This document shows, one piece after another, positions 11,771-36,206 of a stretch of 64,000 nt of DNA. The stretch's first letter is position 1. The number at the start of each line of letters is the position of its first letter. The notes beneath the pieces are model-generated. The model was not told where the DNA came from. It searched no databases and worked only from the letters and a program-made list of their open reading frames with translations. The position numbers and the translations under genes were made by a program. Source of the stretch: Candidatus Kerfeldbacteria bacterium (lineage in GTDB: Bacteria; Patescibacteriota; Patescibacteriia; SBBC01); contig JAZDNT010000002.1 in NCBI GenBank assembly GCA_043799405.1, positions 235,320 through 299,319 of the forward strand, written 5' to 3'.

Positions 11771-11795
11771 TCCCCCTCCTAGCATTGGAGGGGGA
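11771..11795 (+). terminator. GC-rich hairpin after the 477-aa gene (possible terminator; no T-tract)
   Basis: tccccctcc (11771-11779) pairs with ggaggggga (11787-11795). It is followed by the ggatcccgc motif, which also recurs at the tRNA loci. Confidence 0.3.
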
Positions 11796-11821
11796 TCCCG
11801 CGGAGCGGAAGGGGAGGCACA

Positions 11822-12121: not shown

Positions 12122-12210
12122 AGCATTATGTAAAAAATGAACAGCAAGCGTATTGTGCATTACTGTTTTTTTGTATTGAAAAAAGTGAAATAGTGGAAAT
12201 AAACGAGAGG

Positions 12211-12239
12211 TTTCCATAGACGCTGTTTTGTGGTATAAT
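12211..12239 (+). promoter_or_regulatory. Sigma-70-like promoter with an extended -10, for the 12289 operon
   Basis: TTTCCA (12211-12216), a 17-nt spacer, then tgg-TATAAT (12234-12239). It lies in an AT-rich gap of about 160 nt. Confidence 0.5.
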
Positions 12240-12288
12240 TATTCCGTTATCGTAAGGAAAAAAGTCATTAAAAAAGCCATAAAAACGA

Positions 12289-14127
12289 ATGATTGACTTT
12301 GCTGAAGTCGGACGGCTCAATTTTAGGGAAAAGGCTGCGCTCGTTCGGCTTGATGCTATTCTCGGCGAGGTCGCAAGTTACGCAGAAACAAGGACGGCGG
12401 CAGAGCTCGCATCGATCCTGCAGAAAAAAGTTGATGAGGATGCGGTCCTTGCCGAACCTCTCGCATCGTACATCGCAAAATTCAGGGTCCTTGAGCTTCC
12501 GCTCCTGACGGACACTGATGCCATTTCGGTCTTCTTGCATATCAGAGCCATCCTGGCCGATGAAAGGATCAGTCTCTACGAACGCATCCGCGCTCGATTC
12601 CTTATCGTTCCTTCTTCCCGACGGGAAGCGTTTGCATTGCAGATCCTTGACGTGGTACGGAAATCGGACGAGTCGTTCGGTTCCGGTACTCTATCTGTTG
12701 GCGCTGAAACCCTCCCGCAAACGGTCGGATCCTGGGTCCGTGCGTTTGAAGCAAGCAGCAGTATAAAAACCGGGGATGTGACGGTGTTCTTTGCGCAACC
12801 ATTTTTTAAGAAGCTGAGCGACGAGGATGACCACGCCGTTCGCCACCTCATCCATATCGTTTCGTTGCTGAGAGCACCCGACTCGATTGAGGCAAAACCT
12901 CCCGTTGTCATACAGCGTGTCACCCCTACCCTAAAGCCTGTACCAGCCCCTTCGAATCTTCCTGTTGAACCGTTGCCTTCGGCTCCAGCGTCCGCCGCTC
13001 CACCCCCGGTCATTCTAGCACAACGGCCACGCGTGAGCGCTCCGTCTGTTCCTTTTTCTCCGGCTCCAGCAGCCGTTAGCGCGGAACGGGGTCCGAGCGT
13101 TGCCGCAGTACTCGCGCGGCTACAACAGGCGCAACTCTATACACCTTCATCGACGCCTGCGGTCGCGCACCTCACACCGGAGGATCACGAGGAGATTCGT
13201 CAGCATACCGATAAGCTCGCATCCTACGATGTCGGTCCGAACGTCCACGATACGTTGAGCAATACCACCGATGCGATCATTAAGGATTTTAACCTAACGT
13301 TCGCCGACGAGAACCTTAAGCGTCGGTTCATAACCATAATCACCTCGCGCCTCAAGGATATCCGGAAGCCAACGGACACGCTTGAGATCCTTACGAGAGG
13401 CGTAAAGGTCGGTGGCATGGAGTACGATCCGGAGCTTGCGGAAAAGATCGTCATGAAAGCGACTGAAGAGGCGCAGAAGTTCTCGACAGAAGAGGGCGTG
13501 AAGAAGCTCGTCGAAAAGCAGCAAGTTGTTCCGGCGACGCCAAAACCGCCAAAGGTCCCCATTGAGCCGCAGCCGATATCACCCCAACCTATTCCACCAA
13601 TGATGGCGTTCCCAGCGCCTACCCCTAGTACGTCAATGAGGGTTCCCCTGACGACGCCGAACGTTCCGTTCCGCATTCCCGTTCAGCAGGTACGCGAAGC
13701 GCCTACTGCCCCTCCGCAGCCGGCCCCACCAATACCCTCTGCTTCGTTCAGACCGATCCAGACGGAACGCCCCACGATATCGGACATCCGCGGGGTTTCC
13801 CGGCTCGTCGGTCCGGTCGAGGAGATACGGGCAATGACCCTTTCTGACTTCCGCCGTCTCGGTGAAACTGCGGTCGCGTGCGTACGTAAGGTCTACGAGA
13901 AGATACAGCTGCTCAACAAGGAATCATTCACGAAACGCGCAGAAGGAATTAAGGCGTGGCATGAGTCTGAGACGTACAAGCTCTACCTTGCCATGGGGCA
14001 GGAGAGCCTGTTCACGGGGAAGACGATACGCGACATCATCGTTGAACGGCAGCGCCAGGGGCAGCCAGCGCTGAGCGAACAAGAGTTCTCTCTCACCGCC
14101 GATCTCAACCGTAAACTTCGCTACTGA
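12289..14127 (+). CDS. Hypothetical protein (612 aa) with two Pro-rich linkers
   Basis: Long ORF. Pro/Ala-rich tracts (PVPAPSNLPVEPLPSAPASAAPPP; PATPKPPKVPIEPQPISPQPIPP) separate globular segments. No TM segment. The stop is 2 nt before the next gene. Confidence 0.75.
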   Translation: MIDFAEVGRLNFREKAALVRLDAILGEVASYAETRTAAELASILQKKVDEDAVLAEPLASYIAKFRVLELPLLTDTDAISVFLHIRAILADERISLYERIRARFLIVPSSRREAFALQILDVVRKSDESFGSGTLSVGAETLPQTVGSWVRAFEASSSIKTGDVTVFFAQPFFKKLSDEDDHAVRHLIHIVSLLRAPDSIEAKPPVVIQRVTPTLKPVPAPSNLPVEPLPSAPASAAPPPVILAQRPRVSAPSVPFSPAPAAVSAERGPSVAAVLARLQQAQLYTPSSTPAVAHLTPEDHEEIRQHTDKLASYDVGPNVHDTLSNTTDAIIKDFNLTFADENLKRRFITIITSRLKDIRKPTDTLEILTRGVKVGGMEYDPELAEKIVMKATEEAQKFSTEEGVKKLVEKQQVVPATPKPPKVPIEPQPISPQPIPPMMAFPAPTPSTSMRVPLTTPNVPFRIPVQQVREAPTAPPQPAPPIPSASFRPIQTERPTISDIRGVSRLVGPVEEIRAMTLSDFRRLGETAVACVRKVYEKIQLLNKESFTKRAEGIKAWHESETYKLYLAMGQESLFTGKTIRDIIVERQRQGQPALSEQEFSLTADLNRKLRY

Positions 14128-14129
14128 TT

Positions 14130-14639
14130 ATGCAGTATACCGTTCCGCAGTTCATCGACGTCGAGGACAAGATCATCGGACCGATATCGGTCCGGCAGTT
14201 CCTTACCTTCCTCGTCTGCGCAGCGCTCATCTTTGCGAACTACGAGATCGTCTATAAGGTATTCCTTCCGAACTTCTGGGTATTCGCGATCTCATCGATT
14301 TTTATCTTCGCTGTCGCAGGTACCTTCGCTTTTTTAAAGATCAACGGCCGCCCCTTTCACTACTTTCTCTTGAACTTTCTCGTTACGATGCAGAAACCAC
14401 GCCTTCGGGTATGGAACAAACGGCTGCGGCGCGCAGACCTCATTCGGCCGGAAGAGGTGATCGAGATAATTGAGGCGATCCCGATAAAGAAACCGCTCAC
14501 GATCAGTAAGCTCACTGAGCTATCGCTCATCGTTGATACCGGAGGCGCCTACCAAGAAGCAAGCAGCGACCTGTCGGAGAAAAAGGAAGAGCGTTCTACG
14601 AAGGAAGAAAACGTAAGAGATATTTTTTCGGAGCCGTAA
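14130..14639 (+). CDS. PrgI-family (VirB3-like) small T4SS membrane protein
   Basis: The N-terminus MQYTVPQFIDVEDKIIGPISVRQFLTFLVCAALIF followed by a second TM helix matches the PrgI-family pattern as I recall it. It sits directly upstream of the VirB4 ORFs. Confidence 0.75.
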   Translation: MQYTVPQFIDVEDKIIGPISVRQFLTFLVCAALIFANYEIVYKVFLPNFWVFAISSIFIFAVAGTFAFLKINGRPFHYFLLNFLVTMQKPRLRVWNKRLRRADLIRPEEVIEIIEAIPIKKPLTISKLTELSLIVDTGGAYQEASSDLSEKKEERSTKEENVRDIFSEP

Positions 14640-14642
14640 CCT

Positions 14643-15344
14643 ATGGCAAAGACAAAGATTATCAGGCAGAAGCCGAGCGAAAAGATTTCGCACAACGCGC
14701 CGTCAACGCAGCGCTTCCTCGACATCCTTGAGATCAAGGACGATGTCGTCGTCTTAAAGGACGGGTCTGTACGCGCCGTTCTCTTGGTTTCCTCGATCAA
14801 CTTCGACCTTAAGTCCGAGGAGGAGCAGAACGCCGTTATTTCGAGCTATGTGCAGTTTTTGAACTCGATTGAGTTCCCGCTGCAGATCGTCATGCAGTCC
14901 CGAAAACTGAACATCGACCGCTACCTTGAGAAGCTGAAAGAGCTCGAGAAGCAGCAGACGAACGAGCTTTTAAAGTCGCAGACCGTCGAGTATCTTCAGT
15001 ACATACAGGAGCTGGTCGAGATCGCAGACATCATGACGAAACGATTCTACGCGGTCGTTCCGTACACCGGTTCGGCTATGACGACGAAGAAGTTCATGTC
15101 GCGGCTCGTCGATGCTTTCTCGCCGACGAACGTTATCCATTTGAAGCAGAAGAAGTTCGAGGAGTACAGGTCGGAACTGTTCAAGCGGGTGGAATTCGTG
15201 ATGGACGGTCTCGGGTCAGCAGGACTGAAGTCCGCGATCCTCGACACGCAGAGCCTTATCGAGCTGTACTACAACACGTATAACCCAGAAACGTCCTCGC
15301 AGGAGCACATGGTCGAGGTCGGAAAGTTACAAGTTGAATCCTAA
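14643..15344 (+). CDS. Protein resembling the VirB4 N-terminal domain (233 aa), encoded separately from the ATPase
   Basis: LEIKDDVVVLKDGSVRAVLLVSSINFDLKSEEEQNAVISSYVQFLNSIEFPLQIV resembles the N-terminal segment of Gram-positive VirB4 (PrgJ/TcpF/Orf16-type) proteins. Confidence 0.65.
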   Translation: MAKTKIIRQKPSEKISHNAPSTQRFLDILEIKDDVVVLKDGSVRAVLLVSSINFDLKSEEEQNAVISSYVQFLNSIEFPLQIVMQSRKLNIDRYLEKLKELEKQQTNELLKSQTVEYLQYIQELVEIADIMTKRFYAVVPYTGSAMTTKKFMSRLVDAFSPTNVIHLKQKKFEEYRSELFKRVEFVMDGLGSAGLKSAILDTQSLIELYYNTYNPETSSQEHMVEVGKLQVES

Positions 15345-15349
15345 TACCT

Positions 15350-17257
15350 ATGCCTGATATCAACCTATCAAAACTGAAGACCGGTGAGACGCTTCCTGGA
15401 AAGGAAGAGGTCAAGAAAACGCGTCCGCGACCAATCGAGACCCCGGCGGAGGTCATCGAGGCAGAACGTATCTACCGTCGCGGCGTCGTCTCGGTGCGCG
15501 ATCTCATCGCGCCGGCCGCGTTGCGCGTCGATACGAACTACATCGAACTCGGCTCGAAGTTCGTGCGTACGGTGTTCGTCGTCACCTACCCGCGGTACAT
15601 CGCAGTCGGGTGGTTCGCGCCAATAATCAACTTCAATTCCCCGCTCGATATCGGCATGTTCTTCTACCCCGTAGAATCTAAGGTCATCCTGAAACAGCTC
15701 AAGAACAAGGTCGGGGCATTAGAGGCCCAGATCCTCTCTGATGCAGAGAAGGGCGCTCCGCGCGATCCGATACGGGAGACGGCCTTGCGCGATATCGAGA
15801 AGCTCCGCGACGACCTTACACAGGGGACAGAAAAGTTCTTCCAATTCGCGCTCTACGTCACGATTTACGGCAGCTCTAAGGATGAGCTCGACCGGGTAAC
15901 GGAAAAGATCGAGGATATGTTCGGATCGAAGCTCGTCTTCTCGAAGCGCTCACTGTTCCAGGGAGAGCAGGGGTTCACGTCCAGCCTACCGCTCGGCGTC
16001 GACCAGTTAATGATCTACTTCAACATGAACTCGAGCCCGGTAGCGAGCTCGTTCCCGTTCATCTCGAGCGATCTTACGAGCGACAACGGCATCTTGTATG
16101 GGATCAACCGTCATAACAACTCACTCATTCTGTTCGATCGGTTCTCCTTACAGAACGCGAACTTTACGGTATTCGCAACGTCAGGCGCTGGAAAGAGCTA
16201 CGCGGTAAAACTGGAGATACTCCGATCGATGATGTTCGGTACCGACGTTATCGTGATCGACCCGGAAAACGAGTACAAGTACCTGTCCGACGCGGTCGGC
16301 GGTACGTACGTGAACATATCGCTCAATTCCGACTCGAAGATAAATCCGTTCGATCTCCCGAGGAGCATACAGGGCGATGAAAAGGCGGCGGACATCATTC
16401 GATCCGCGGTCATTACGCTCAAATCGTTGATGCGCCTCATGCTCGGACAGATTACCAATGAAGAAGATTCGATCATTGACCGCGCGCTCCTCGAAACCTA
16501 CGCAAAGAAGGATATCACTCCGGAGAGCGACCTATCGAAGGTCGAGCCGCCGTTGATGCGTGATTTTCAGGACGTCCTTTCGGGCATGGTCGGCGCTGAC
16601 CAACTCGTCGAACGGCTCAAGAAGTACACGGAAGGTACGTTCTCGGGACTCTTCAACAGCCCGACCAACGTCGAGGTCAATAACCAGCTGATGATCTTTT
16701 CGGTCCGCGACCTCGAGGATGAGCTCCGCCCGATCGGTATCTCAATGATCGTAAGCTACATCTGGAACGTTGCTCGATCGACACTGAAAAAACGCATCCT
16801 TACGATCGACGAGGCGTGGTGGCTCATGCAGAACGAGGATTCCGCGAAGTTCATCTACTCGCTCGTAAAGCGGGCTCGGAAGTACTACCTCGGCGTTACG
16901 ACGATAACGCAGGACGTGAACGATTTCCTCCGCTCCCCGTACGGTCAGGCGATCGTGAACAACTCGGCCCTCCAGCTACTAATGAAGCAGTCTCCGGCCG
17001 GTGTTGACATTGTCGCAAAGACCTTCCTGCTGACGCAGAGCGAGCGGTACCTCCTGCTCGAAGCAGGCGTCGGCGAGGGCATCTTCTTCGCCGGTGCGAA
17101 ACATGCCGCAATAAAGGTTGTTGCGAGCTACACCGAGGACCAGATCATCACATCCGATCCGCGGCAGCTCCTTGAGATCGAAGAGGCGAAGAAGGAGTTC
17201 GAGCAGTCGCTCGCACGCGGCGAGGTTCCCGAGTCGATGGGGGGAGCCGTGAAATGA
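15350..17257 (+). CDS. virB4: VirB4-like T4SS ATPase (middle domain plus ATPase domain, 635 aa)
   Basis: DLIAPAALRVDTNYIELGSKFVRTVFVVTYPRYIAVGWFAPII matches the VirB4 middle-domain pattern. Walker A is FATSGAGKSY (about 16169-16201). Walker B-like is ILTIDEAWWLM. Later motif: YYLGVTTITQDVNDF. Confidence 0.85.
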   Translation: MPDINLSKLKTGETLPGKEEVKKTRPRPIETPAEVIEAERIYRRGVVSVRDLIAPAALRVDTNYIELGSKFVRTVFVVTYPRYIAVGWFAPIINFNSPLDIGMFFYPVESKVILKQLKNKVGALEAQILSDAEKGAPRDPIRETALRDIEKLRDDLTQGTEKFFQFALYVTIYGSSKDELDRVTEKIEDMFGSKLVFSKRSLFQGEQGFTSSLPLGVDQLMIYFNMNSSPVASSFPFISSDLTSDNGILYGINRHNNSLILFDRFSLQNANFTVFATSGAGKSYAVKLEILRSMMFGTDVIVIDPENEYKYLSDAVGGTYVNISLNSDSKINPFDLPRSIQGDEKAADIIRSAVITLKSLMRLMLGQITNEEDSIIDRALLETYAKKDITPESDLSKVEPPLMRDFQDVLSGMVGADQLVERLKKYTEGTFSGLFNSPTNVEVNNQLMIFSVRDLEDELRPIGISMIVSYIWNVARSTLKKRILTIDEAWWLMQNEDSAKFIYSLVKRARKYYLGVTTITQDVNDFLRSPYGQAIVNNSALQLLMKQSPAGVDIVAKTFLLTQSERYLLLEAGVGEGIFFAGAKHAAIKVVASYTEDQIITSDPRQLLEIEEAKKEFEQSLARGEVPESMGGAVK

Positions 17258-17811
17258 AGCGTTACTTCCTTATTGCGGCGCCTATCATCGTCGCCGGGAT
17301 AGTGACGTACGTGGCAATGAGGTTTATCAACGGGAGCAATGAGAATATATCGAACGTTTCGGTCGTCGTTATCAATGCGAATACTACGAACGCGACGGAC
17401 GCATCGAGAAATGTGAACGCAAAGCCGTCAAGCAGGGATCAGGTCCTCTCGCTCGCCAGGCTCTTCTCCGAACGTTACGGAACGACGCTCACCGATGCGC
17501 CGAACGCCAACATCGATAGCGTTCTTCCGTTCGCAAGCGCTTCATTGAAAGAAACGCTGAATCGATTGAGAAGCCGGCCATTGATCAACGCTGGCAAAAG
17601 CGTTAGTACAACGAGCATCGCGCTCGCCTTCAAGATCGTTTCTCTAGACGATAAGGACGGGACCGCAGAGACCGTTGTATCGCTTCAGCGGAAAGAAGAT
17701 GCAGGATCAGGAGCGCCAATAGTATTTATGCAAGATATGCGTCTCAGTTTCGTTTTCGAGGATGAAGAATGGAAGGTGAGCGCGGCGCTCTGGAGCGCAA
17801 GAACGCAGTAA
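17254..17811 (+). CDS. Bitopic membrane protein (185 aa); candidate VirB8-like component
   Basis: ATGA overlap with virB4. One N-terminal TM helix (YFLIAAPIIVAGIVTYVAM), an Asn-rich linker and a C-terminal domain of about 120 aa. The VirB8 assignment rests only on topology, size and position. Confidence 0.6.
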   Translation: MKRYFLIAAPIIVAGIVTYVAMRFINGSNENISNVSVVVINANTTNATDASRNVNAKPSSRDQVLSLARLFSERYGTTLTDAPNANIDSVLPFASASLKETLNRLRSRPLINAGKSVSTTSIALAFKIVSLDDKDGTAETVVSLQRKEDAGSGAPIVFMQDMRLSFVFEDEEWKVSAALWSARTQ

Positions 17812-17814
17812 CGT

Positions 17815-18603
17815 ATGGCAGCGCAGCAAGAGAGCCAGAGCGAATCGCAGTACCGGCGTTCATTACAGCGCGGGAAACGGCAGGAACAGCAACCCGATAC
17901 AGAACCTGGCACAGAAGGACTCGAAGAGATCGGAGGAGGGGCTCAACCGGGCGGCGATACAACCGGAGGCTATACGAACGTTCTCGAAGACGGGGGAGCA
18001 AGGAGAAGATCGCCTCAAAAGGAAACACAGCAGCAAGGCGGTATAGGCATGTCGCCTGAAACGTACAAGTCCGGCAGCGAAGAGCAGTATGAACGCGCTG
18101 CGCAGGAAGACAGTCAGAGACAGCAGCAGAAAAGTTCAGCCGATGTTGAACAAGAAAAAACAGCAGAGGAAGACCGCGAACAACAGGAGCAGATGGCGAC
18201 ACAGGACCGGCGCCGGCAGCAGCCCGGACCAGAAGAAGCAAAGCGTACCGCTGAACTCGAAAAGGCCGCAGCAGCAGGTGGCGATGTCACGAAGAAAGCG
18301 AGCCTTCGCGAGAACGTCCAGCAGTCAATGCGGAATGCGGCAGCGCAACGGCTTAAACAGGTCGCACAGCAGCGCGTACAGTCGTTCCTTAAAACCATTA
18401 TTCTCAATAATCCCTGGGTACGGGGCGCACTGCTCGTATTGGTAGGATTGGTGCTTAGTTTATTCCTTTTTTTCATGATTTCGATTGTAACAGTATCAAT
18501 AATTTGTGAATGGGGCGAAAAAATTCCCTTTTCCGGACCGGTCGTTAACGTCATTTCGCAAATGGCAACGGGCATGCAGTGTCCGAACCTCCCGACGAAG
18601 TAA
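17815..18603 (+). CDS. Tail-anchored membrane protein with a Q/E/R-rich disordered N-terminal region of about 200 aa
   Basis: Low-complexity QQ/EE/RR-rich sequence followed by the hydrophobic segment ALLVLVGLVLSLFLFFMISIVTVSIICEW near the C-terminus. Confidence 0.7.
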   Translation: MAAQQESQSESQYRRSLQRGKRQEQQPDTEPGTEGLEEIGGGAQPGGDTTGGYTNVLEDGGARRRSPQKETQQQGGIGMSPETYKSGSEEQYERAAQEDSQRQQQKSSADVEQEKTAEEDREQQEQMATQDRRRQQPGPEEAKRTAELEKAAAAGGDVTKKASLRENVQQSMRNAAAQRLKQVAQQRVQSFLKTIILNNPWVRGALLVLVGLVLSLFLFFMISIVTVSIICEWGEKIPFSGPVVNVISQMATGMQCPNLPTK

Positions 18604-18620
18604 CAGTATTTATATGTAAA

Positions 18621-20033
18621 ATGAAAATAATTCACCGTATTGCAATCATCAGCGTCGCTGCAGTATGCATATTTATTGTGTCGTTCAGGACCGTTAACGC
18701 ACAGAAAACGGAAGAAGCGACGTGCGATCCGGCGAAATCGCTCTGCTTTACCCCGAACGTCGAAATTCCAGGACTCTTTACGGGGACGAAGACCGTCGAT
18801 GAAACGCTCTTCGGTACGTACGTGAGCAGCTTCTACATTTTCTTCGCGGGAGTCGCCGGCATCCTTGCGGTCGTCATGATCATGTGGGGCGGGTTCCACT
18901 ACATCACCTCGCTTGGAAACCCGCAGCGCATGAAGGAAGGGAAGGACATCATCAACAACGCGATCATCGGCCTCATCCTCGTTCTCACATCGTACCTACT
19001 GCTACGTACGATCAATCCGCGCCTCACGACGCTCATAATCCCGCCGGTCGGCTACTACAGCCCGATATACCAGACCGACATCTACTGCAATGCACAGGAT
19101 AAGGTAAACGGAAATACCCTTGCAACGGATGCGGCGAGGAAAGCAGGAAAATTCTGTACGAGCGACGGGCAGACGAAAGAGCAGCTGACCGTCGAGTATA
19201 CAAATGAGAAAGGCGGTAAACAGACCTGCGTTTCGCTCGAGATCACCGAAAAAGTACTAAACGAACAGAAGGTGTTGACTCAGATAGAAAACGGATGGCA
19301 AGAGCAGCTTGTGTGCTTCCCTAAACAGGAAACAGTACAGGATCCAAAGACAAATACAGTATCGAGCAAGTATCTGTATAAACTACGCGATGTGGCAGGT
19401 ACGAGCGGAGTGTGTGAAGATAATACAATGACGCCGGATGCGCAGTGCGCCGTTACGCAGAAAATGCTGTCCCTGGCTGGCGGGAAGTACCTGATTGGTG
19501 CATGCAAGAACTCGAACGTCGCAGCTGCATTTTGGTTTGTTGGGTGGACGGGGAAAGACGTATGCCACTACTATCAGTTTCTGAATTGTCCGACAGCGAC
19601 CACAGAGGCGGTTTCCTGTAGTGCTGCTGGCGCAGGCGTCAATTCAGCATGCTGGGACGAAAAGGGACCGAGGTACGTTGCCGATATCGGAGGCGGCAGC
19701 CTCCAGTCATACTGCGTTGAGCCGAATATTAGTCCTGTTATTGAACATGTTGATGCGCGCTGTTGTTCAAAAACCATTAAGGAAGAAATTGTCTGTTCGC
19801 CGTTGTCTGTCCTGACGGACATGGGTTACTATAATGTACAATGCGGTAGCTTCGAAGAGCTCGACGGTTTCTTTGCCTCAATAAACGAGGAAACGATTCA
19901 GGATGAAATAGGAATGTCGAAAGAGCATATTTTTGTAACTAAGGGTGGCACTGGAAAGAAGGACTGTCCGTCAAAAAAATGTTGGACGACCATATGGCTC
20001 ATCAATATGAACAAAAAGCTACCATGGGAATAA
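18621..20033 (+). CDS. Secreted protein with a VirB2/TrbC-like two-helix pilin core and a Cys-rich C-terminal domain of about 330 aa
   Basis: I prefer the ATG at 18621 (MKIIHRIAIISVAAVCIFIVSFRTVNA signal) over the track start at 18579, which overlaps the upstream gene. The core is FYIFFAGVAGILAVVMIMWGGFHYITSLGNPQRMKEGKDIINNAIIGLILVLTSYLLLRTINP. It is a paralog of the core in the 21300 gene. Confidence 0.75.
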   Translation: MKIIHRIAIISVAAVCIFIVSFRTVNAQKTEEATCDPAKSLCFTPNVEIPGLFTGTKTVDETLFGTYVSSFYIFFAGVAGILAVVMIMWGGFHYITSLGNPQRMKEGKDIINNAIIGLILVLTSYLLLRTINPRLTTLIIPPVGYYSPIYQTDIYCNAQDKVNGNTLATDAARKAGKFCTSDGQTKEQLTVEYTNEKGGKQTCVSLEITEKVLNEQKVLTQIENGWQEQLVCFPKQETVQDPKTNTVSSKYLYKLRDVAGTSGVCEDNTMTPDAQCAVTQKMLSLAGGKYLIGACKNSNVAAAFWFVGWTGKDVCHYYQFLNCPTATTEAVSCSAAGAGVNSACWDEKGPRYVADIGGGSLQSYCVEPNISPVIEHVDARCCSKTIKEEIVCSPLSVLTDMGYYNVQCGSFEELDGFFASINEETIQDEIGMSKEHIFVTKGGTGKKDCPSKKCWTTIWLINMNKKLPWE

Positions 20034-30588: not shown

Positions 30589-31419
30589 TTATTCGGCCGT
30601 GCGTGCGGTCGATTCGCCGTACTCGATACTGAACTTCACACGGCCGTACGGCATTTTCTTCGGCGGATTGTCGAGGTCGAGCTCGACCCGATTCGGGATG
30701 AGGGACGTTTCCTGGCGTTCACGAGGCGCTCCCTCCTCGTTGAACAATTTCGGCATTTCCAGTTTAGTCGCTGGCGTTCCAGCTAAGTCAATGACTGCGC
30801 CGAGGTGGACGCTGTCGCTTTCTCCCTCGGCCGTCTTGGTGATCTCCCTGTACACGGTCGTCTTCGCATCCATGACGAATTTTTCAACACGCTTTTTGTC
30901 ATTATCAACGGCCACCGTTACGTCACCTGATGCAACCATAGCGTCAAGCGTTTCCTTAGAAGGTCGAAGCACTGCCTCGGGGAACGTCGCAAGTTCGCCA
31001 TCGCCCCAACTTGAGCCGCTTGTACCTCTTTCGGTACGACCATGGCGCACATTTGAAAGGTGGATATTTTTTCCGATGACATCAAGATTATCGAACTCGA
31101 CGCTGCCGACGTTCCATGTCTCATAGCGCTCTTTGTCCGATTCAGTCTGTACATTCGGATCTTGTTCGGTAATAGGAGTTCCCTGTTCATCGACTAAGAC
31201 CTTTCCGGTCTCGGGATCGGTTTTTATCCGTTCACCGGTAAATGAACCCTTGATGAACGTTGCACCGTTCTGACCTTTTTCGTATTTGGTCTGTTGATAT
31301 TCCCGGCCGTCGTACGCATACCTAGTATCGAACGTTTCGTTTCCTTCAATGTCGGTTTCATCTGAACCTTCAATGTATTGATCGAGTTTTGGTGCTCGTC
31401 CGTGTTCAGGGTTTTCCAT
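30589..31419 (-). CDS. Hypothetical acidic soluble protein (276 aa)
   Basis: Long ORF of plausible composition with no TM segment or signal. It has an AT-rich upstream region. No motif recognised. Confidence 0.7.
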   Translation of the reverse strand: MENPEHGRAPKLDQYIEGSDETDIEGNETFDTRYAYDGREYQQTKYEKGQNGATFIKGSFTGERIKTDPETGKVLVDEQGTPITEQDPNVQTESDKERYETWNVGSVEFDNLDVIGKNIHLSNVRHGRTERGTSGSSWGDGELATFPEAVLRPSKETLDAMVASGDVTVAVDNDKKRVEKFVMDAKTTVYREITKTAEGESDSVHLGAVIDLAGTPATKLEMPKLFNEEGAPRERQETSLIPNRVELDLDNPPKKMPYGRVKFSIEYGESTARTAE

Positions 31420-31539
31420 AATCGATTAGAGTTTAATTAAGTAACAGAATACTATACACGATATTTTCCTTGTAGTCAAGTGTAACACGAATTAACAGTT
31501 CTTTGTAAGAACTCACTTGATTTGTTATTCGGATTACTA

Positions 31540-31840
31540 TGGCGCGCCCGGCAGCCCCGCACTATTCGCTACGCTCAAGTGCGGGATCTTCGAGATTTGT
31601 CCAGCGGCCCTTTTTGTTACAATCGACTATTACAGTTGCTGACCGCCGCCCTGCCTGGTGCGCTCGGGAGGATTTGAACCTCCGGCCCTCAGCTCCGCAA
31701 GCTGAGGCTCTATCCGGACTGAGCTACGCGCGCCCAGGCAGGGCGGCGTCTGAATAATTTAAGTAACGTTGATATATTAGCTGATGCGGTACCTGCCTCG
31801 CACCCGCAGTGGTGCGGGGTCCGGACTGAGCTACGGGCGC
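31540..31840 (-). other. tRNA-Arg-like outer shell: a 5' fragment (acceptor, D-stem, D-loop) and a 3' acceptor+CCA fragment bracketing the intact tRNA-Arg
   Basis: On the minus strand, GCGCCCG-TA-GCTC-AGTCCGGA (31840-31820) is near-identical to the inner gene's 5' end and is then broken by CCCCGCAC. Far downstream, GTGCGGGG-CTGC-CGGGCGC-G-CCA (31562-31540) has an acceptor strand that is a perfect complement of GCGCCCG. Confidence 0.4.
31656..31733 (-). tRNA. tRNA-Arg (anticodon GCG)
   Basis: Manual cloverleaf: GCGCGCG TA GCTC AGTCCGGATA GAGC C TCAGC TTGCGGA GCTGA GGGCC GGAGG TTCAAAT CCTCC CGAGCGC A CCA. There is one G-A mismatch in the acceptor stem. CCA is encoded. Confidence 0.85.
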
Positions 31841-31914
31841 ACGCCGGAATATCTTAGCATACCATTGAGTTATTACAACCAGATGAATACCCGTCGCTTG
31901 TACAGCCAATAAAC

Positions 31915-31938
31915 CACCGCATGTGTCGATGCACGGTG
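31915..31938 (-). terminator. Hairpin downstream of the 166-aa membrane protein gene
   Basis: On the minus strand, CACCGTGCAT-CGACA-CATGCGGTG is followed by GTTTATT. The stem is imperfect. Confidence 0.35.
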
Positions 31939-31956
31939 TTTCCTGAACGATTTCTA

Positions 31957-32457
31957 TTAGATCCTGAACAGCCTTCCTATCGCGTCCGAGGTCGCCTCGT
32001 CCTCCTTTGAAAGGTCTTCCTGAATGAACCTGCGAAGCTGTTTTCTGATCTCAACGGGGTTCGCATCCTCGAGCGCGATGCCGATCAGCGGACGGAGCGC
32101 GCTCTTGAAGGTGAAGTAGATCGTTTTTGCCGGCGGTTTGTAGATGATCCAGAAGTTCTTGATGTCGTCAAACGGGAAGAAGTCCTTTCCGATGCCGATG
32201 CCGTCCTCGAATATTGTCGCGGTCAGCACCCGCGGTTTCTGGCGCGAGCGGTAGTAGAAGATCGACCAGCCGATGATGACAATGAAGGCGAACAGGGGAT
32301 TTCTCGAGAAGATCGCGTACGTTAACAGCGCAAGCCCGATGACCGTCATGATGGCGTACCACATCCGCGTATAGGCATAGTGGGGGATTTCCGGAAACTT
32401 CCACGATAGCAGCGAGCTGCCGTGGTCGATCACTTGGTTTTGTTCTGGTTGCGCCAT
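31957..32457 (-). CDS. Hypothetical membrane protein (166 aa, two TM helices plus a soluble C-terminal domain)
   Basis: TM helices MWYAIMTVIGLALLTYAIF and LFAFIVIIGWSIFYY, followed by a domain of about 100 aa. Confidence 0.75.
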   Translation of the reverse strand: MAQPEQNQVIDHGSSLLSWKFPEIPHYAYTRMWYAIMTVIGLALLTYAIFSRNPLFAFIVIIGWSIFYYRSRQKPRVLTATIFEDGIGIGKDFFPFDDIKNFWIIYKPPAKTIYFTFKSALRPLIGIALEDANPVEIRKQLRRFIQEDLSKEDEATSDAIGRLFRI

Positions 32458-32532
32458 AGGTGCACCTCCTTATGTAGAGTGTACCACGTTTGAACAATTC
32501 AATATATCCACCGAGACCATCGCCGGTTAAAT

Positions 32533-32846
32533 GGTTTTCCCCGCTCCTTGATTTAAGGCATCAAATGATTGCGGGATCGCGCCAATAGCGGAGGGTGAAG
32601 GATTCCCGCCGACCTCCTCGGCTGTGCTCGGAGTTTGGCGGGCAGGCGAACCTACGATCCCGCCTTTGGCGGGCAAGACTCATGAGGAGAGCGGAGGCGG
32701 TAGGATTCGAACCCCGTATAAGCGCTACGCGCTTTACGGGGCAAGCCCCCGATACCTTTGCAGGTATTCCGGTTTTTCAGGCGAAGCCGGATCCGGCTCT
32801 GTCGGGCAAGACTCATGAGGAGAGCGGAGGCGGTAGGATTCGAACC
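32533..32846 (-). repeat. Scrambled tRNA-Ser-derived fragments and direct repeats downstream of the nested tRNA-Ser(UGA) pair
   Basis: A 44-nt direct repeat, GGTTCGAATCCTACCGCCTCCGCTCTCCTCATGAGTCTTGCCCG, occurs at 32846-32803 and 32713-32670. A repeat of about 73 nt (T-loop 3' half, acceptor, trailer hairpin) occurs at 32942-32870 and 32605-32533. There is also a chimeric interrupted T-arm, GTAGGTTC|42 nt|GAATCCTTC. Confidence 0.5.
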
Positions 32847-33061
32847 TACGAGACCTTTTCAGGTCTAGCGGTTTTTCCCGCTCTTTGATCTAGTGTATCA
32901 AATGTTTGCGGGATCGCGCCAATGGCGGAGGGTGAAGGATTCGAACCTTCGAGACCATTGCTGGTCTAACGGTTTTCAAGACCGTCGCTTTCGACCGCTC
33001 AGCCAACCCTCCGCCATTGGCGGGACAAGACTGCCCGATTCAACCACTCTCGCACGCCTCC
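32825..33061 (-). tRNA. Interrupted tRNA-Ser(UGA)-like gene (outer) whose 150-nt anticodon-loop insert contains the complete inner tRNA-Ser(UGA)
   Basis: Exon 1 (33061-33026): GGAGGCG TG CGA GAGTGGTTGAA TCG G GCAGT CTTG. Exon 2 (32875-32825): AAA ACCGC TAGACCTGAAAAGGTCTC GTAGG TTCGAAT CCTAC CGCCTCC G. Joined, these give an 87-nt type-II cloverleaf with one A-C mismatch in the anticodon stem. Whether it is expressed or spliced is unknown. Confidence 0.5.
32923..33012 (-). tRNA. tRNA-Ser (anticodon UGA)
   Basis: GGAGGGT TG GCT GAGCGGTCGAA AGC G ACGGT CTTGAAA ACCGT TAGACCAGCAATGGTCTC GAAGG TTCGAAT CCTTC ACCCTCC G CCA. All stems are Watson-Crick and it has a long variable arm. Confidence 0.9.
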
Positions 33062-33106
33062 GCTCTCCCTACGAATTGTCACCTTAGACCACTCAGCCAA
33101 CCTTCC
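33062..33106 (-). other. Orphan 5' fragment of a third type-II tRNA (acceptor plus D-arm 5' part)
   Basis: GGAAGGT TG GCT GAGTGGTCTAA is followed by non-tRNA sequence that ends in GGAGAGC, which pairs with the trailer of the outer Ser(UGA). I could not assemble a colinear 3' partner. Confidence 0.4.
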
Positions 33107-33114
33107 ATAAATCA

Positions 33115-33462
33115 CTACCGACGAATTTGGTTATTTTCTGGTTTCGTGTGGTGGTATTTACCGAGGATGTCTTTTGCAACCATATTGAACGCTTCCTCAA
33201 TATCGATGTTGAGTTGGTTCGAAAGCCTGCAGAGCGCGAAGAAGAGGTCGCCGATGCCGTCCTTGAAGATCATAGTATGTTTCTTCACGAACGCAACTCG
33301 TTCCTTCTCCGATTTGTAGCGGAGGTGCTGCGACATTTCGATGAGTTCCTCGTGGAGGTGGTCGAATTTGTCGACATTCGGGACGTCTTTCCAACGGTTG
33401 CGTCGTGAAAATACCTTCACAAGCGCCTGCGCATCACGCATGGAACTGATTCGTTGTTGCAT
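33115..33462 (-). CDS. MazG-like nucleotide pyrophosphohydrolase (115 aa)
   Basis: Helical protein with HLHEELIEMSQ...IGDLFFALCRLSNQLNIDIEEAF, which fits the EExxE...D pattern of the MazG family. Confidence 0.8.
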   Translation of the reverse strand: MQQRISSMRDAQALVKVFSRRNRWKDVPNVDKFDHLHEELIEMSQHLRYKSEKERVAFVKKHTMIFKDGIGDLFFALCRLSNQLNIDIEEAFNMVAKDILGKYHHTKPENNQIRR

Positions 33463-33478
33463 AGGTATTGTTAATTAT

Positions 33479-33573
33479 CTGGCGGGACACTCGAGTTAGG
33501 TACCCAACCCGCGCAAGCATTATACGGGTTTTCTGACGATTTTTCTAGAGGGTGATTCGAGGTACATGGGTCA
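33479..33573 (-). repeat. Intergenic repeat element, copy 1 (promoter plus leader upstream of the MazG-like gene)
   Basis: Shares these blocks with copy 2: tggcgg[g/a]acac..gagttaggtacc, ttttctgacgattttt, gagg.ca.g.gggtc. On the minus strand it carries TATAAT (33524-33519). Confidence 0.5.
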
Positions 33574-33583
33574 CTCAAAAACT

Positions 33584-34270
33584 CTATGTGCGGTAAGATC
33601 GTGACTCGATTCTCTCGGCGCGTAATTTCAGAACTCGCTCCGAGATTAATCGGGCTATATCTTCTCGAGAATACTTCGGATGTTTCGAGTATGCTGGGTG
33701 CAAAGTACTTAAAACCCCCCAAATCGCTTGGTGATCACCGGGTTGAGCATCGACCCATTCATTAAATATTGACAGACGAGCTAATTCGCCGATGTCGCGT
33801 TCTTTTCGCTCATCAGTTGTCATTGGCAGTAGCGCACTTTCGAAAATGAGATGAAAATCTGGACCGAATACTTTATTACATATCTGACGTGTCCGGGGAA
33901 TATGGTAATCCGCTGCAACGATAACAAGACTGTGCCACTTTTTCGGGATCGCAAAGAGTGTTTTTACAAAGTATGCGTTTCCAATCGTTTCTTTTGACTG
34001 CTCCTCTTTGAGTATACAACTCGATGGACAGCCAAGCTGTTCAGCAAATTCTGCCATAGCCGCAGCCTCGGTTCGTAACGGCACCATTACACTCGATGAT
34101 GCCCAAGCTCCTGACATTACTATCACTGGAGCAAGCTTGTCATTCCACAATTGAACCGCCTTTTTGACTCGAACACGTGAGTTGTTTTCAAGTGATCCGT
34201 CAGGGTTTATTCCCCCGCCGAATACTACAATGGCGTCAAACATGTGAACATTTACTTTTTTTACTAGCAA
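33584..34270 (-). CDS. DUF218/YdcF-family protein
   Basis: FDAIVVFGGGINPDGS...VIVMSGAWASS...TEAAAMAEF...KETIGNAYF...VIVAADYHIPRT fits the YdcF/ElyC pattern. Confidence 0.8.
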   Translation of the reverse strand: MLVKKVNVHMFDAIVVFGGGINPDGSLENNSRVRVKKAVQLWNDKLAPVIVMSGAWASSSVMVPLRTEAAAMAEFAEQLGCPSSCILKEEQSKETIGNAYFVKTLFAIPKKWHSLVIVAADYHIPRTRQICNKVFGPDFHLIFESALLPMTTDERKERDIGELARLSIFNEWVDAQPGDHQAIWGVLSTLHPAYSKHPKYSREDIARLISERVLKLRAERIESRSYRT

Positions 34271-34298
34271 TTGGGTCTACTCCAATACTTTGCTCTCT

Positions 34299-34392
34299 TG
34301 GCGGAACACATGAGTTAGGTACCACCGCCAGAGGGATATTGTAAGGCTTTTCTGACGATTTTTATAGGCGCGAATTTGAGGCAGGTGGGTCG
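34299..34392 (-). repeat. Intergenic repeat element, copy 2 (upstream of the DUF218 gene)
   Basis: See copy 1. On the minus strand it carries TACAAT (34343-34338). Its downstream end, TCCGCCAAGAGAGCAAAGTATTGGAGTAGACCC, resembles the 3' end and trailer of the outer tRNA-Ser(GCU), TCCGCCAAGAGAACCAAGTATCGTACGACCC. Confidence 0.5.
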
Positions 34393-34409
34393 GGTGGGCC
34401 GGCAGCTTT

Positions 34410-35147
34410 TTATTTTTTAAACGCCTTTACCTTCCCACGTGGTGGGTAGCGAAGATCGTGTGTATGCATCACATAGTTCGAATATGCCAGTCGTTTTTTT
34501 TGCTCAAAACGTTGAAATCCACTTAACCTAATCCGTTCTTTCGGATCCTTATAGGCAGAGATTTGAGCTTTGATGTCAGTAATATAGAACCATCGAAAAC
34601 CTCCCAGCCAGGCTCGTCTACAGTAATCGGCGTCTTCACTACGACGGCTAACCGCTGACAAATAACCCAATTTGCCGAACACTTGTTTTGAAAAAGAAAA
34701 GAAACAGCCAGCTAAATTCCAGTATGGCCATGGATCCAAGTAGTGGCGTCCATTTTTGGCTAATGCGAAACCACTCATGTAGGTATAAGCACCGAGTATG
34801 GCTTTATCTTGCCAGTCTCTATGCGCCTTCATTAATGTGTCAACCCAGTTACTACTTTGGATGGTAACGTCGTTATCGAGGATGGTATAATAATCCATCC
34901 TAGGGTAACGTCGTAGGGCTACATTGACGCTTTTCGGTTTACCGATGTTTTTTTCGTTGCGCTGGAGTAGGATGGCAGGATTTTTTGCAATTAATTTCTG
35001 TATCGCCGTTCTTGTTTTCAGGTCGCTATGATCATCGGCAATAAGTAATGTGCTTTTTTTCAGATCTGTCGTCCGCACCAGACTCCCAATACAACGCCGA
35101 GTAAGCGTCGGTTTATTATATACGCAGACAATAATAAGGTGTTTCAT
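34410..35147 (-). CDS. Family 2 glycosyltransferase
   Basis: IIVCVYNKPTLTRRCIGSL...LIADDHSD...ILDNDV fits the GT-A fold (DxD) pattern. Confidence 0.8.
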   Translation of the reverse strand: MKHLIIVCVYNKPTLTRRCIGSLVRTTDLKKSTLLIADDHSDLKTRTAIQKLIAKNPAILLQRNEKNIGKPKSVNVALRRYPRMDYYTILDNDVTIQSSNWVDTLMKAHRDWQDKAILGAYTYMSGFALAKNGRHYLDPWPYWNLAGCFFSFSKQVFGKLGYLSAVSRRSEDADYCRRAWLGGFRWFYITDIKAQISAYKDPKERIRLSGFQRFEQKKRLAYSNYVMHTHDLRYPPRGKVKAFKK

Positions 35148-35193
35148 AAAACCATTTTAGTATGCACCCGGGTCGTACGATACTTGGTTCTCT

Positions 35194-35523
35194 TGGCGGA
35201 GAGGGAGAGATTCTCCCGCTCCTTTTCTTAATATGCGAAACGATTCGCGGGATCCCGCCCATCGAGGGCGGGAGAACTCTCGATCCCGCAATATGGCGGG
35301 ATAACGGTTTAGTCGCCGCCCCAGAGCGGAGAGGGAGAGATTCGAACTCTCGAAGCGAGTATAACCCCGCTTAACGGTTTAGCAAACCGCTGCCTTCAGC
35401 CACTCGGCCACCTCTCCGCTCTGGGGCGGGATCCTCGTCCCGTTTTATGGCGGGACGGGACAAACCGCTGCGCCTGCCCCGCACCCATTGTGGTGCGGGG
35501 TTCAACCGCTCGGCCACCTCTCC
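35194..35523 (-). tRNA. Triply interrupted tRNA-Ser(GCU)-like gene (outer) containing the intact tRNA-Ser(GCU) in its anticodon-loop insert
   Basis: Colinear parts: GGAGAGG TG GCC GAGCGGTTGAA | 24-nt hairpin | CAGGCGCA GCGGT TTG | 148-nt insert | CTAA ACCGT TA TCCCGCCATATTGCGGGA TC GAGAG TTC | 60-nt insert | GAAT CTCTC CCTCTCC G CCA. About 2-4 extra nt near the D/anticodon junction remain unexplained. Confidence 0.5.
35327..35417 (-). tRNA. tRNA-Ser (anticodon GCU)
   Basis: GGAGAGG TG GCC GAGTGGCTGAA GGC A GCGGT TTGCTAA ACCGT TAAGCGGGGTTATACTCGCTTC GAGAG TTCGAAT CTCTC CCTCTCC G. CCA is not encoded. Confidence 0.9.
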
Positions 35524-35552
35524 GCTCTGCGCCCTTTGATCGCGTTAGAGCG

Positions 35553-36206
35553 TTATCCCTTTGCAATGGTAAGTGCGGTGATGTGTTCCATTCCGGCTTC
35601 GCGGAGGACGTGCGCAACCTCGGAAATCGTTGCACCGGTCGTGAACACGTCGTCGATGATTATACCACGTTTCGGTACAAAATCAACGGCGTGTGCTAAT
35701 GCGAATGCATGCGCGACGTTCCTGGCGCGCTCGTTCTCATGCAGCGTGACCTGAGGAACAGTGTTCTTAATCCTGATGACCAGCGGCATGACTGGTATCT
35801 TGAGAACGGACGCTGCTTCTTCAGAGATGAGCATTGCCTGGTTAAACCCGCGCGAGCGTTGCCGTTTTGAATGAAGCGGTACGGGTATGATACAATCAGC
35901 CGTTAAATATTCTTCTGCAAGTTTTCCAAGCGCGCGACCGAGGATGGTGCTTATAACCCTGCCGCCGCCATACTTGAGTTGCTTGATGACTTGCCCGAGG
36001 ATCCTTGAATCGTACGAACCAAGACAGAGCAGACGGTCGACGTGTTTTACCGGTTCAGCGCGGTCGATATGAGGACCGCACGATAAAAGGCACGATTCGC
36101 ATAGCCATACGCCGTCGGTGCCGCACCCGCGGCAAGAAGGCGGAAAGAGGATATTGAGAACTAGTTCGCGGAGATGGTGAATAATCGGTGGCATAGTACG
36201 CGCCAC
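35553..36206 (-). CDS. comF: ComF-family phosphoribosyltransferase-like competence protein
   Basis: N-terminal Cys cluster (CRGCG...CESC). The C-terminal PRTase motif is IIIDDVFTTGATISE. Confidence 0.85.
   Translation of the reverse strand: MARTMPPIIHHLRELVLNILFPPSCRGCGTDGVWLCESCLLSCGPHIDRAEPVKHVDRLLCLGSYDSRILGQVIKQLKYGGGRVISTILGRALGKLAEEYLTADCIIPVPLHSKRQRSRGFNQAMLISEEAASVLKIPVMPLVIRIKNTVPQVTLHENERARNVAHAFALAHAVDFVPKRGIIIDDVFTTGATISEVAHVLREAGMEHITALTIAKG

Follow-up and report, generated by a model that had tools for sequence, protein, structure and literature searches.

Nested tRNA-Ser(GCU) genes in a Kerfeldbacteria genome: a probable gene fossil around a replacement copy

The GIY-YIG open reading frames (ORFs) of fungal mitochondria, such as that of Allomyces atp6, bring a replacement for the end of the gene they enter and leave the old part behind as a pseudogene fragment, and small mobile double hairpins, the mitochondrial 'double-hairpin elements', lie near such ORFs. 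The multi-intron, split and permuted tRNA genes of archaea (Thermoproteales, Nanoarchaeum) carry several non-canonical interruptions, including interruptions of the D- and T-loops, with GC-rich helices near the junctions. In phage T4, the GIY-YIG homing endonuclease SegB is encoded within a tRNA gene cluster and has a recognition site that includes the TΨC stem-loop motif; repair of the cut it makes transfers the nuclease gene, along with tRNA genes beside it, to the recipient, a process termed 'intronless homing' (PMC2330249). Within the Patescibacteria themselves, group I introns are found in the anticodon loop of tRNA genes, with position 35/36 enriched and with homing endonuclease genes in some of them (PMC13011429). 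Here we describe a tRNA locus in a 64,000-nt stretch of a Candidatus Kerfeldbacteria genome (Patescibacteria; GCA_043799405.1, contig JAZDNT010000002.1, positions 235,320 to 299,319; hereafter the window), in which an intact tRNA-Ser(GCU) gene lies inside the colinear pieces of a second tRNA-Ser(GCU) gene, which we refer to as the shell (35523–35194, minus strand; all coordinates are those of the window unless a contig is named). All three tRNA genes of the window are nested in like fashion. The explanation that we favor, with a probability of roughly 0.65, is that the shell is a fossil of the resident gene, that the inner tRNA arrived on a replacement cassette, and that homing by a GIY-YIG nuclease brought it there.

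Anatomy of the nested tRNA-Ser(GCU) locus

An earlier inspection of the window (the sequence-only reading) had described a triply interrupted tRNA-Ser(GCU) shell around an intact gene, and when the locus is read on the minus strand all of the shell pieces fall at the coordinates given there. The first piece (GGAGAGGTGGCCGAGCGGTTGAA, 35523–35501) supplies the 5' strand of the acceptor stem, the 5' strand of the D-stem and the start of the D-loop of the resident tRNA-Ser(GCU); over the first 15 nt it matches the inner tRNA exactly, and it occupies the syntenic slot immediately after comF. The D-loop is interrupted by a perfect 24-nt hairpin (CCCCGCACC-ACAATG-GGTGCGGGG, 35500–35477), likewise as described. 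The second piece (CAGGCGCAGCGGTTTG, 35476–35461) comprises four extra nucleotides, the 3' strand of the D-stem, the 5' strand of the anticodon stem and the TTG of the anticodon loop. Comparison of the spliced shell with the inner tRNA identifies the nucleotides near 35476–35469 which had been left unexplained as these four extra nucleotides of the shell D-loop, and the CAGG that follows the hairpin probably belongs to the insert. The same hairpin family, again with CAGG after it, recurs in the D-loop of the window's tRNA-Arg shell (31819–31792) and in a Ser(UGA) layer of contig L091.

The second insert (35460–35313, 148 nt) follows the TTG of the anticodon loop and does hold the whole of the inner tRNA. 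It opens with a 29-nt hairpin (35460–35432), after which comes the replacement cassette (35431–35313), made up of a 14-nt 5' arm (TCCCGCCCCAGAGC, 35431–35418), the intact and functional tRNA-Ser(GCU) (35417–35327; called by both ARAGORN and Rfam, the latter at 58.3 bits) and a 14-nt 3' arm (CTCTGGGGCGGCGA, 35326–35313). The two arms add 12 bp to the acceptor stem, giving a continuous helix of about 19 bp that is present in the minimum free energy (MFE) fold. The third piece of the shell (CTAAACCGTTA-TCCCGCCATATTGCGGGA-TCGAGAGTTC, 35312–35274) resumes with the CTAA of the anticodon loop and continues through the 3' strand of the anticodon stem, the variable arm (TCCCGCC-ATAT-TGCGGGA), the 5' strand of the T-stem and the TTC of the T-loop; a weak antisense Rfam match here marks the 3' half of a tRNA-Ser. 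The third insert, 60 nt in length and composed of two hairpins (21 and 39 nt), sits exactly between TTC and GAAT of the T-loop (35273–35214), where it had been placed before, and the fourth piece (GAATCTCTCCCTCTCCGCCA, 35213–35194) completes the shell with GAAT, the 3' strands of the T-stem and acceptor stem, the discriminator G and an encoded CCA. The shell thus has its own variable arm and a G-CCA end, while the inner gene is followed by CTCTGG and lacks an encoded CCA; both points had been made from the letters and hold. The start codon of the downstream GT2 gene (35147) lies 46 nt beyond the end of the shell, a distance previously put at about 50 nt.

At this locus ARAGORN and Rfam call the inner gene only and do not report the shell. 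In the MFE fold of the whole locus (z = -9.9) every insert forms its own hairpin and the inner tRNA stands on its helix of about 19 bp. About 135 nt ahead of the shell, within the 3' end of comF, there is a strong sigma-70-like promoter match (TTGATT-16-TATAAT preceded by TG, 35686–35659, minus strand), recognized by consensus only (10 of 12 hexamer positions). This is likely the promoter of the whole nested unit, and since promoter-like sequence is confined to the region upstream of the shell, transcription of the live tRNA would run through the shell's 5' half.

To judge the spliced sequences we used the yes/no call of ARAGORN in place of a covariance-model score. Exact removal of the three inserts yields a tRNA-Ser(GCU) call at the default threshold, and the call is lost if either the first or the third insert is kept in place. 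Among control sequences, calls were returned for none of 300 shuffled sequences, for 2 of 300 in which the 24- and 60-nt deletions were placed at random, and for 26 of 300 in which the insert boundaries were shifted by 1–8 nt. The arrangement of the shell is therefore more than chance. The spliced shell and the inner tRNA are identical in all four stems, the differences being confined to the D-loop (two substitutions and the four extra nucleotides) and the variable arm. The default call spans positions 3–98 of the spliced sequence, and as it begins at position 3 the shell is not fully canonical.

Recurrence, polarity and decay of nested tRNA genes

Contigs of relatives (ComF identity 55–64%) keep the LemA-M48-ClpC-ComF synteny. 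L081, L086 and L091/L226/L227 show nesting at the same site after comF, with the same break between TTG and CTAA and with homologous cassette arms. In L081 and L086 the break is followed by a hairpin and then by TCCCGCAYCAGAGC-tRNA-GCTCTGGTGCGG, and L091, a groundwater contig, displays four layers. The pairing of the cassette arms is kept among these loci, with one compensatory change in which a C-G pair of the window is replaced by A-T in L081 and L086. The nested architecture is seen at the three loci of the window and in six or more separate assemblies that stem from different projects, and as the junctions in these are unique, mis-assembly is very unlikely.

The sister locus in the window, a multi-layered nest of tRNA-Ser(UGA) genes (33106–32538, minus strand), is more elaborate. 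Its outermost 5' fragment (33106–33072) is followed by a shell of the GGAGGCG type, broken at CTTG/AAA (the slash marking the break) into segments at 33061–33026 and 32875–32823; between these lie the intact cassette tRNA of the GGAGGGT type (33012–32926) and a 38-nt hairpin (32913–32876). Further downstream, a 42-nt insert in a T-loop (32646–32605; break TTCG/AATCC) is followed by a second 3' fragment, of the GGAGGGT type (32604–32577), and by a second copy of the hairpin (32576–32538). The order of the layers was set by comparison with L081, L086 and L091. This locus also contains an exact 44-nt direct repeat (GGTTCGAATCCTACCGCCTCCGCTCTCCTCATGAGTCTTGCCCG, 32846–32803 and 32713–32670), which indicates that a tRNA 3' end plus its trailer was duplicated.

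The third locus, tRNA-Arg(GCG) (31840–31540, minus strand), consists of a decayed native shell around a cassette tRNA. The inner tRNA-Arg(GCG) (31733–31656) stands on a 15-bp leader/trailer inverted repeat, has one G·A mismatch in its acceptor stem and differs in that stem from the shell. The shell has lost the 5' strand of its T-stem and is otherwise the sequence of the plain tRNA-Arg gene in L087. The leader/trailer helices of all three tRNAs of the window were measured by eye.

Short hairpins of the form (T)CCCGC...GCGGG(A), 15–38 nt long, bound the inserts, and within the 64 kb they are found only at 31555–31818, 32540–33024 and 35215–35499. Their confinement to the three tRNA loci ties them to the nesting process rather than to a dispersed repeat family. 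Dispersed palindromes resembling repetitive extragenic palindromic (REP) sequences or bacterial interspersed mosaic elements were considered as a source of these hairpins and rejected on the same distribution.

The direction of change can be read from several loci. The tRNA-Arg gene of L087 is plain and has no flanking repeat, and its sequence is that of the Arg shell in the window. Among the Ser(UGA) genes, the GGAGGCG type survives whole in L091 but only as a shell in the window, where the live inner gene is of the GGAGGGT type; the latter in turn forms a shell in L081, having been invaded there by a GGTGGGA gene. Plain genes thus came first and nested ones later. The acceptor, anticodon and T stems of the Ser(UGA) layers are complementary within each layer and different between layers, from which it follows that whole genes arrived as units, as expected of a site-specific mobile cassette and not of local duplication. 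The GGAGGGT cassette, with an identical arm (TCCCGCCAATGGC), moreover adjoins one shell 5' half in the window and another in L086, and presence/absence polymorphism at the same site is seen among related genomes for Arg (L087), for Ser(UGA) (L091) and for the layers of L091 and L226. The last two contigs represent the same lineage in two samples, and L226 (3880–4471) differs from the reverse complement of L091 by one complete 5' layer plus hairpin, indicating that layers are gained or lost; this probably proceeds by recombination between repeated 5' halves, and some assembly effect may contribute.

The shells also decay. When eight shells were spliced in silico, four gave a tRNA call (window Ser(GCU), window Ser(UGA), L081 Ser(UGA) and layer 3 of L091) and four did not (window Arg, L081 Ser(GCU), L086 Ser(GCU) and layer 2 of L091). 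The Ser(GCU) shells of L081 and L086, which occupy the same syntenic position as that of the window, are without the D-arm or one half of the T-arm, and the shell of L086 has anticodon-stem halves that have ceased to pair. The window Ser(UGA) shell bears an A·C mismatch in the anticodon stem which its intact ortholog in L091 does not have.

The Ser(GCU) gene is broken at TTG/CTAA, between nucleotides 34 and 35, in the window, L081, L086 and L091; the Ser(UGA) genes are broken at CTTG/AAA (35/36), and the T-loops at TTC(G)/(G)AATC. In a tally made by eye, every break point read on any contig falls in a loop of the cloverleaf and none in a stem, and no target-site duplication was seen at any junction read. 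One possibility is that a structure-specific nuclease acts on tRNA-gene DNA that is extruded or single-stranded.

Other kinds of mobile DNA were encountered at the same loci. In L086 the D-loop of a middle Ser(UGA) layer has taken in an IS200-type Y1 transposase gene complete with end hairpins of its own (11106–11552), and dead layers thus receive other mobile elements as well. In L081 the Ser(UGA) locus is immediately followed by what looks like an integrated island (11791–19350), which begins with a large serine recombinase and continues with a ResIII helicase and an N6/N4 methylase. Such tRNA loci therefore attract several kinds of mobile DNA.

A plain tRNA in L085 was considered as an un-nested ancestor and rejected, because sibling Logan contigs break inside the tRNA and the plain form may reflect repeat collapse. 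Three Logan contigs of one relative (L082–L084) all end about 77 nt after comF, inside the 5' half of the tRNA, and these ends are consistent with repeat-induced assembly breaks at nested tRNA genes. A scan of species-representative genomes with ClpC returned only matches of about 45% identity from many phyla, ClpC being too conserved for the purpose. The ComF and GT2 proteins of the window gave no record when looked up as exact sequences, the probable cause being a difference in the called start codons. A DNA pattern (CAGAGCGGAGRRGTGSC) applied to metagenomes was unspecific: of its 120 loci most were not tRNA genes, but L091, L139 and L184 came from it. On viral contigs it gave nothing useful. 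In L139, an AT-rich contig resembling those of the candidate phyla radiation (CPR), read as reverse complement, the 3' end of a tRNA-Ser(GCU) is duplicated from GAATCC onward about 120 nt after the gene, following a GC-rich insert of about 115 nt in the T-loop, and a trailer that pairs with the leader (AGATTCAGAGC / GCTCTGAATCT) is present only at the displaced old end. In L135, a high-GC contig from outside the CPR, a 43-nt 5' duplicate of a tRNA-Ser(UGA) (at about 2090–2130) precedes the intact gene by about 106 nt, and partial tRNA duplication beside a live gene is thus not limited to Patescibacteria.

A nuclease family at broken tRNA genes and the origin of the nesting

The slot which in the window is filled by the 29-nt hairpin holds other hairpins in L081, L086 and L091, and in the L091/L226 lineage it holds a GIY-YIG nuclease. 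This 91-amino-acid ORF (PF01541, E = 3.6e-8) forms part of the anticodon-loop insert and is followed immediately by the next cassette; in L184 a truncated GIY-YIG-like ORF, assigned by its motifs only, occupies the same position before a nested tRNA-Ser(GGA). The family of the L091 nuclease is well conserved in Patescibacteria, with an invariant RRExFLKTTEGRRL motif, and is related to the stand-alone UPF0213 GIY-YIG proteins, the nearest relatives of solved structure being 1zg2 and 1ywl. No NCBIfam family matched the nuclease.

Each of the seven members of the family whose contexts were examined (L091/L226, L228, L229, L230–233, L234–236 and L237) lies against a tRNA gene that is accompanied by a displaced old fragment and, at the broken anticodon loop or T-loop, by a hairpin or a hairpin pair. 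In L228 a 5' copy of tRNA-Ser(UGA), broken after the CTT of the anticodon loop, is followed by a hairpin pair, the nuclease and an intact tRNA-Ser(UGA). In L229 a Tyr-like tRNA is broken at TTCG/AATCC by a hairpin pair and followed by the nuclease, the contig ending inside the ORF. An old tRNA-Ser(GGA) is broken at the same T-loop site by a hairpin pair in L230–233, or carries hairpins in both the anticodon arm and the T-loop in L234–236, and in each case the nuclease and an intact tRNA-Ser(GGA) come next. The polarity is reversed in L237, where an intact tRNA-Glu precedes the nuclease, the hairpin pair and an old 3' end that begins at AAATCC. The nuclease-linked hairpins of L229, L230, L234 and L237 share the T-loop site of the window to within 1 nt (TTC(G)/(A)AATCC), and those in the T-loops of L229, L230 and L237 are pairs. 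At the nuclease junctions the hairpins form a conserved pair (GGTCATCCGACC / GGTCGGATGACC), and L091 carries hairpins of both the GGTCATCCGACC type and the CCCGC type.

In some of these nuclease ORFs the C-terminal residues (…SSGHTT) are translated hairpin sequence (P0206 and P0213 in alignment A1; L237 1760–1800), the start of the hairpin pair falling within the ORF or just at its end. A second and unrelated GIY-YIG ORF, of 100 amino acids, was noted between clpC and comF in L226 (2713–3015), with no adjoining tRNA.

We propose the following course of events. A cassette consisting of a hairpin and a complete tRNA-Ser(GCU) on a leader/trailer helix of 10–15 bp would have entered the anticodon loop of the resident gene between nucleotides 34 and 35, without target-site duplication, and its tRNA would have taken over the function, with transcription proceeding from the old promoter through the 5' half of the shell. 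The leader/trailer helix probably lets the inner tRNA fold alone, in that its ends pair together and not with the near-identical halves of the shell. Freed from selection, the shell would later have gained the hairpin modules of the D-loop and T-loop and the few extra nucleotides. As for the agent, the free-standing minimal GIY-YIG nuclease may act as a homing endonuclease that cuts the tRNA gene in a loop of the cloverleaf, with the break being repaired from a donor allele that holds the nuclease, the hairpins and the replacement tRNA, and with the shell halves serving as homology arms; its ORF may once have occupied the slot of the 29-nt hairpin (35460–35432) and since been lost from the locus. 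We hold it to be highly probable that the shell is the fossil of a resident tRNA-Ser(GCU) gene left by a replacement cassette. Whether a GIY-YIG homing nuclease was the driver is a question on which we would put the odds at about even, and the broader proposition, that the minimal nuclease and its hairpins constitute an undescribed, structure-guided homing element which targets the loops of tRNA genes and brings a replacement tRNA, could as readily prove wrong as right.

Several considerations weigh against this explanation. The explanation draws on few loci, all of them read by eye. The stem identity of the Ser(GCU) shell and inner gene would also fit local self-duplication or ongoing gene conversion, and the shell is so nearly perfect that, on sequence alone, it might still be functional; the best account of this near-perfection is that the shell is young or has undergone gene conversion with the inner copy. 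The nucleases, at 83–95 amino acids, amount to the catalytic domain alone, with no obvious DNA-binding domain. The GGTCATCCGACC hairpins are absent from the window, whose CCCGC hairpins are a different sequence family, and tblastn searches of the 64 kb with the GIY-YIG ORFs, the L086 Y1 transposase and the L081 serine recombinase found no relatives. There being no nuclease in the window, the GIY-YIG link rests on the other genomes and its role as driver is one that we infer. Nor were relatives of the nuclease found on viral contigs, in single-protein or profile searches, and no transfer vehicle was identified.

An origin without any mobile element is the strongest of the alternatives, though we regard it as unlikely. 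By this account a break or replication error in the anticodon loop was repaired by a templated copy of the tRNA gene together with its leader and trailer, and the hairpins are unrelated small palindromes. The complete stem identity at the Ser(GCU) locus and the want of a mobility gene in the window would both follow, and the leaders of the shell (GGGCGCAGAGC) and of the inner gene (CCGCCCCAGAGC) have CAGAGC in common. However, the trailer of the inner gene is unrelated to that of the shell, and at the sister loci the two copies are not so alike: the acceptor stem of the inner tRNA-Arg differs from that of its shell, and the Ser(UGA) layers have different stems, each internally complementary. 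A local copy is also hard to reconcile with the finding that the same cassette arm adjoins unlike 5' shell halves in L086 and the window, and with the recurrent association with a nuclease.

Somewhat less probable again is that the nests are footprints of integrases or transposases, either attachment-site duplications of genomic islands since deleted or palindromic mini-elements of the IS200/IS605 type. Elements of the latter kind have hairpin ends and make no target-site duplication; the serine recombinase island of L081 and the Y1 transposase in a D-loop of L086 place such enzymes at these very loci, and arrays of 3' fragments lie downstream of the Ser(UGA) gene. Integration, though, duplicates one end of a tRNA and gives no matched 5' and 3' halves around a complete gene, and the entire anticodon-loop insert is 148 nt long. 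No relative of an integrase or transposase was found in the window with the L086 and L081 proteins as queries, and the end hairpins of the L086 element are unlike the CCCGC hairpins. The inserts are not preceded by a conserved tetra- or pentanucleotide, their left flanks being variable (TTGAA, TTTG, GTTC, CCGGA, CTTG), and the hairpins keep to the tRNA loci rather than being dispersed in the manner of REP sequences or miniature inverted-repeat transposable elements.

The sequence-only reading was right as to a colinear, triply interrupted shell around an intact gene; what it further implies, that the pieces are exons joined in the RNA, is not supported. On that reading the shell would be a functional multi-intron tRNA gene, its inserts being removed (e.g. 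by hairpin cleavage and RtcB-type ligation) and the inner tRNA released, such that two tRNAs-Ser(GCU) result. In its favor, precise removal of the three inserts does restore a tRNA, all inserts are self-contained hairpins that sit in loops with their bases abutting the exon ends, the shell retains its discriminator and CCA, and half of the eight shells can still be reconstituted. Insertions that are not ribozymes are also known in the rRNA genes of CPR bacteria (PMC11270868), and we count this on the same side. Against it, a permissive Rfam scan of 31400–35650 (E up to 5) returned only tRNA and antisense-tRNA matches and no intron or ribozyme family. Group I introns are rejected on this ground and on size, the inserts being 24, 60 and 148 nt in length with 91 nt of the longest taken up by the tRNA. 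By inspection, neither the sequence nor the MFE fold has 3-nt bulges flanking a 4-bp helix, the stems of the insert hairpins ending flush at the junctions, and bulge-helix-bulge introns are rejected on this geometry and on the decay of the shells. No tRNA splicing endonuclease is known from bacteria. The shell is redundant, as an intact copy with the same anticodon lies inside it, and the interrupted gene is neither the sole copy nor maintained in relatives: the Ser(GCU) shells of L081 and L086 lack the D-arm or half of the T-arm, with anticodon-stem halves that do not pair in L086, the Arg shell of the same window is decayed, and four of the eight shells cannot be reconstituted. In L228, L230 and L234 the same hairpin modules adjoin old copies whose 3' part is gone or degenerate, and which could therefore not be spliced, and the spliced shell retains four extra nucleotides in its D-arm region, with the ARAGORN call shifted to position 3. 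The absence of ribozyme matches from the scan, the flush hairpins, the redundancy of shell and inner gene and the decay together argue against a spliced multi-intron tRNA, which we consider very improbable. A slightly slimmer chance still attaches to the particular form of this idea in which the shell is alive as part of a single structured precursor, its loop hairpins being excised and the pieces religated by a protein-based pathway new to bacteria to give a second tRNA-Ser(GCU); if this were true, bacteria would have an equivalent of the multi-intron tRNA splicing of archaea.

Finally, the notion that repeat-induced mis-joining of two tRNA alleles created the nest is hardly credible: the source is a metagenome-assembled genome, Logan contigs of a relative do break inside the tRNA 5' half and L091 and L226 do differ by one layer, but every junction has unique sequence, the architecture is the same at three loci of the window and in at least six independent assemblies, and assemblers collapse repeats and do not make ordered, nested copies with hairpins.

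Significance and comparison with known systems

Nested tRNA genes recur in the ultra-small Patescibacteria, and tRNA finders, which report the innermost gene only, miss the layers around it, layers that also break short-read assemblies. The pattern suggests horizontal replacement of tRNA genes in reduced genomes without a gap in function. If the combined explanation holds, a selfish element would be able to invade an essential gene neither by splicing itself out, as introns and inteins do, nor by avoiding the gene, but by bringing a spare copy with it, and repeated invasion would leave concentric gene fossils whose layering preserves the sequence of events as a natural time series of gene replacement. 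The very small size of the GIY-YIG nuclease, with all breaks in cloverleaf loops, hints at targeting of DNA by structure rather than by sequence.

A full-text literature search found no description of nested tRNA genes or of a module of nuclease, hairpins and tRNA. On the basis of the comparisons below, we rate the behavior as closest to that of free-standing homing endonucleases such as T4 SegB, and would regard the system as a variant of homing-endonuclease mobility for which we found no published description.

As with the attachment-site duplications of integrative elements, tRNA fragments here pile up by age beside a functional gene. Those duplications, however, are made on one side by elements of kilobase size, whereas at the present loci the live gene stands between a 5' half and its matching 3' half, and inserts measure tens of nucleotides. 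With the multi-intron tRNAs of archaea our loci share the interruption of D- and T-loops and the GC-rich helices next to the junctions; the archaeal genes are sole copies which rely on the bulge-helix-bulge motif and a splicing endonuclease, whereas in the present case, that of a bacterium, the motif is absent, the broken gene surrounds an intact copy and shells decay. The group I introns of Patescibacteria are found in the same phylum and likewise insert into the anticodon loop (here at 34/35 and 35/36). These introns are self-splicing ribozymes and restore the tRNA in the transcript, in contrast to hairpin inserts of 24–148 nt without a ribozyme, and at the present loci function is restored at the level of DNA by a second gene copy.

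The resemblance to the GIY-YIG elements of fungal mitochondria is that an essential gene is invaded, the displaced part is supplied anew and the old part is left as a fragment. Those elements act on protein genes in organelles and make a partial, in-frame duplication; here the targets are bacterial tRNA genes, the replacement is often complete and the layers are concentric.

SegB is a protein of about 220 amino acids with a DNA-binding part, and the proteins described here differ from it in being UPF0213-type catalytic domains of 83–95 amino acids. SegB also lies between genes, whereas the present element lies inside its target tRNA gene and leaves a shell, and it is accompanied by hairpin modules and a leader/trailer helix. 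Unlike the phage-borne SegB, moreover, its hosts are cellular Patescibacteria; no phage copies were found, and the window locus itself is without a nuclease. SegB is still a useful precedent: as in T4, a GIY-YIG gene lies by tRNA genes, and here the breaks fall in the T-loop (TTCG/AATCC) or the anticodon loop and an intact tRNA travels along.

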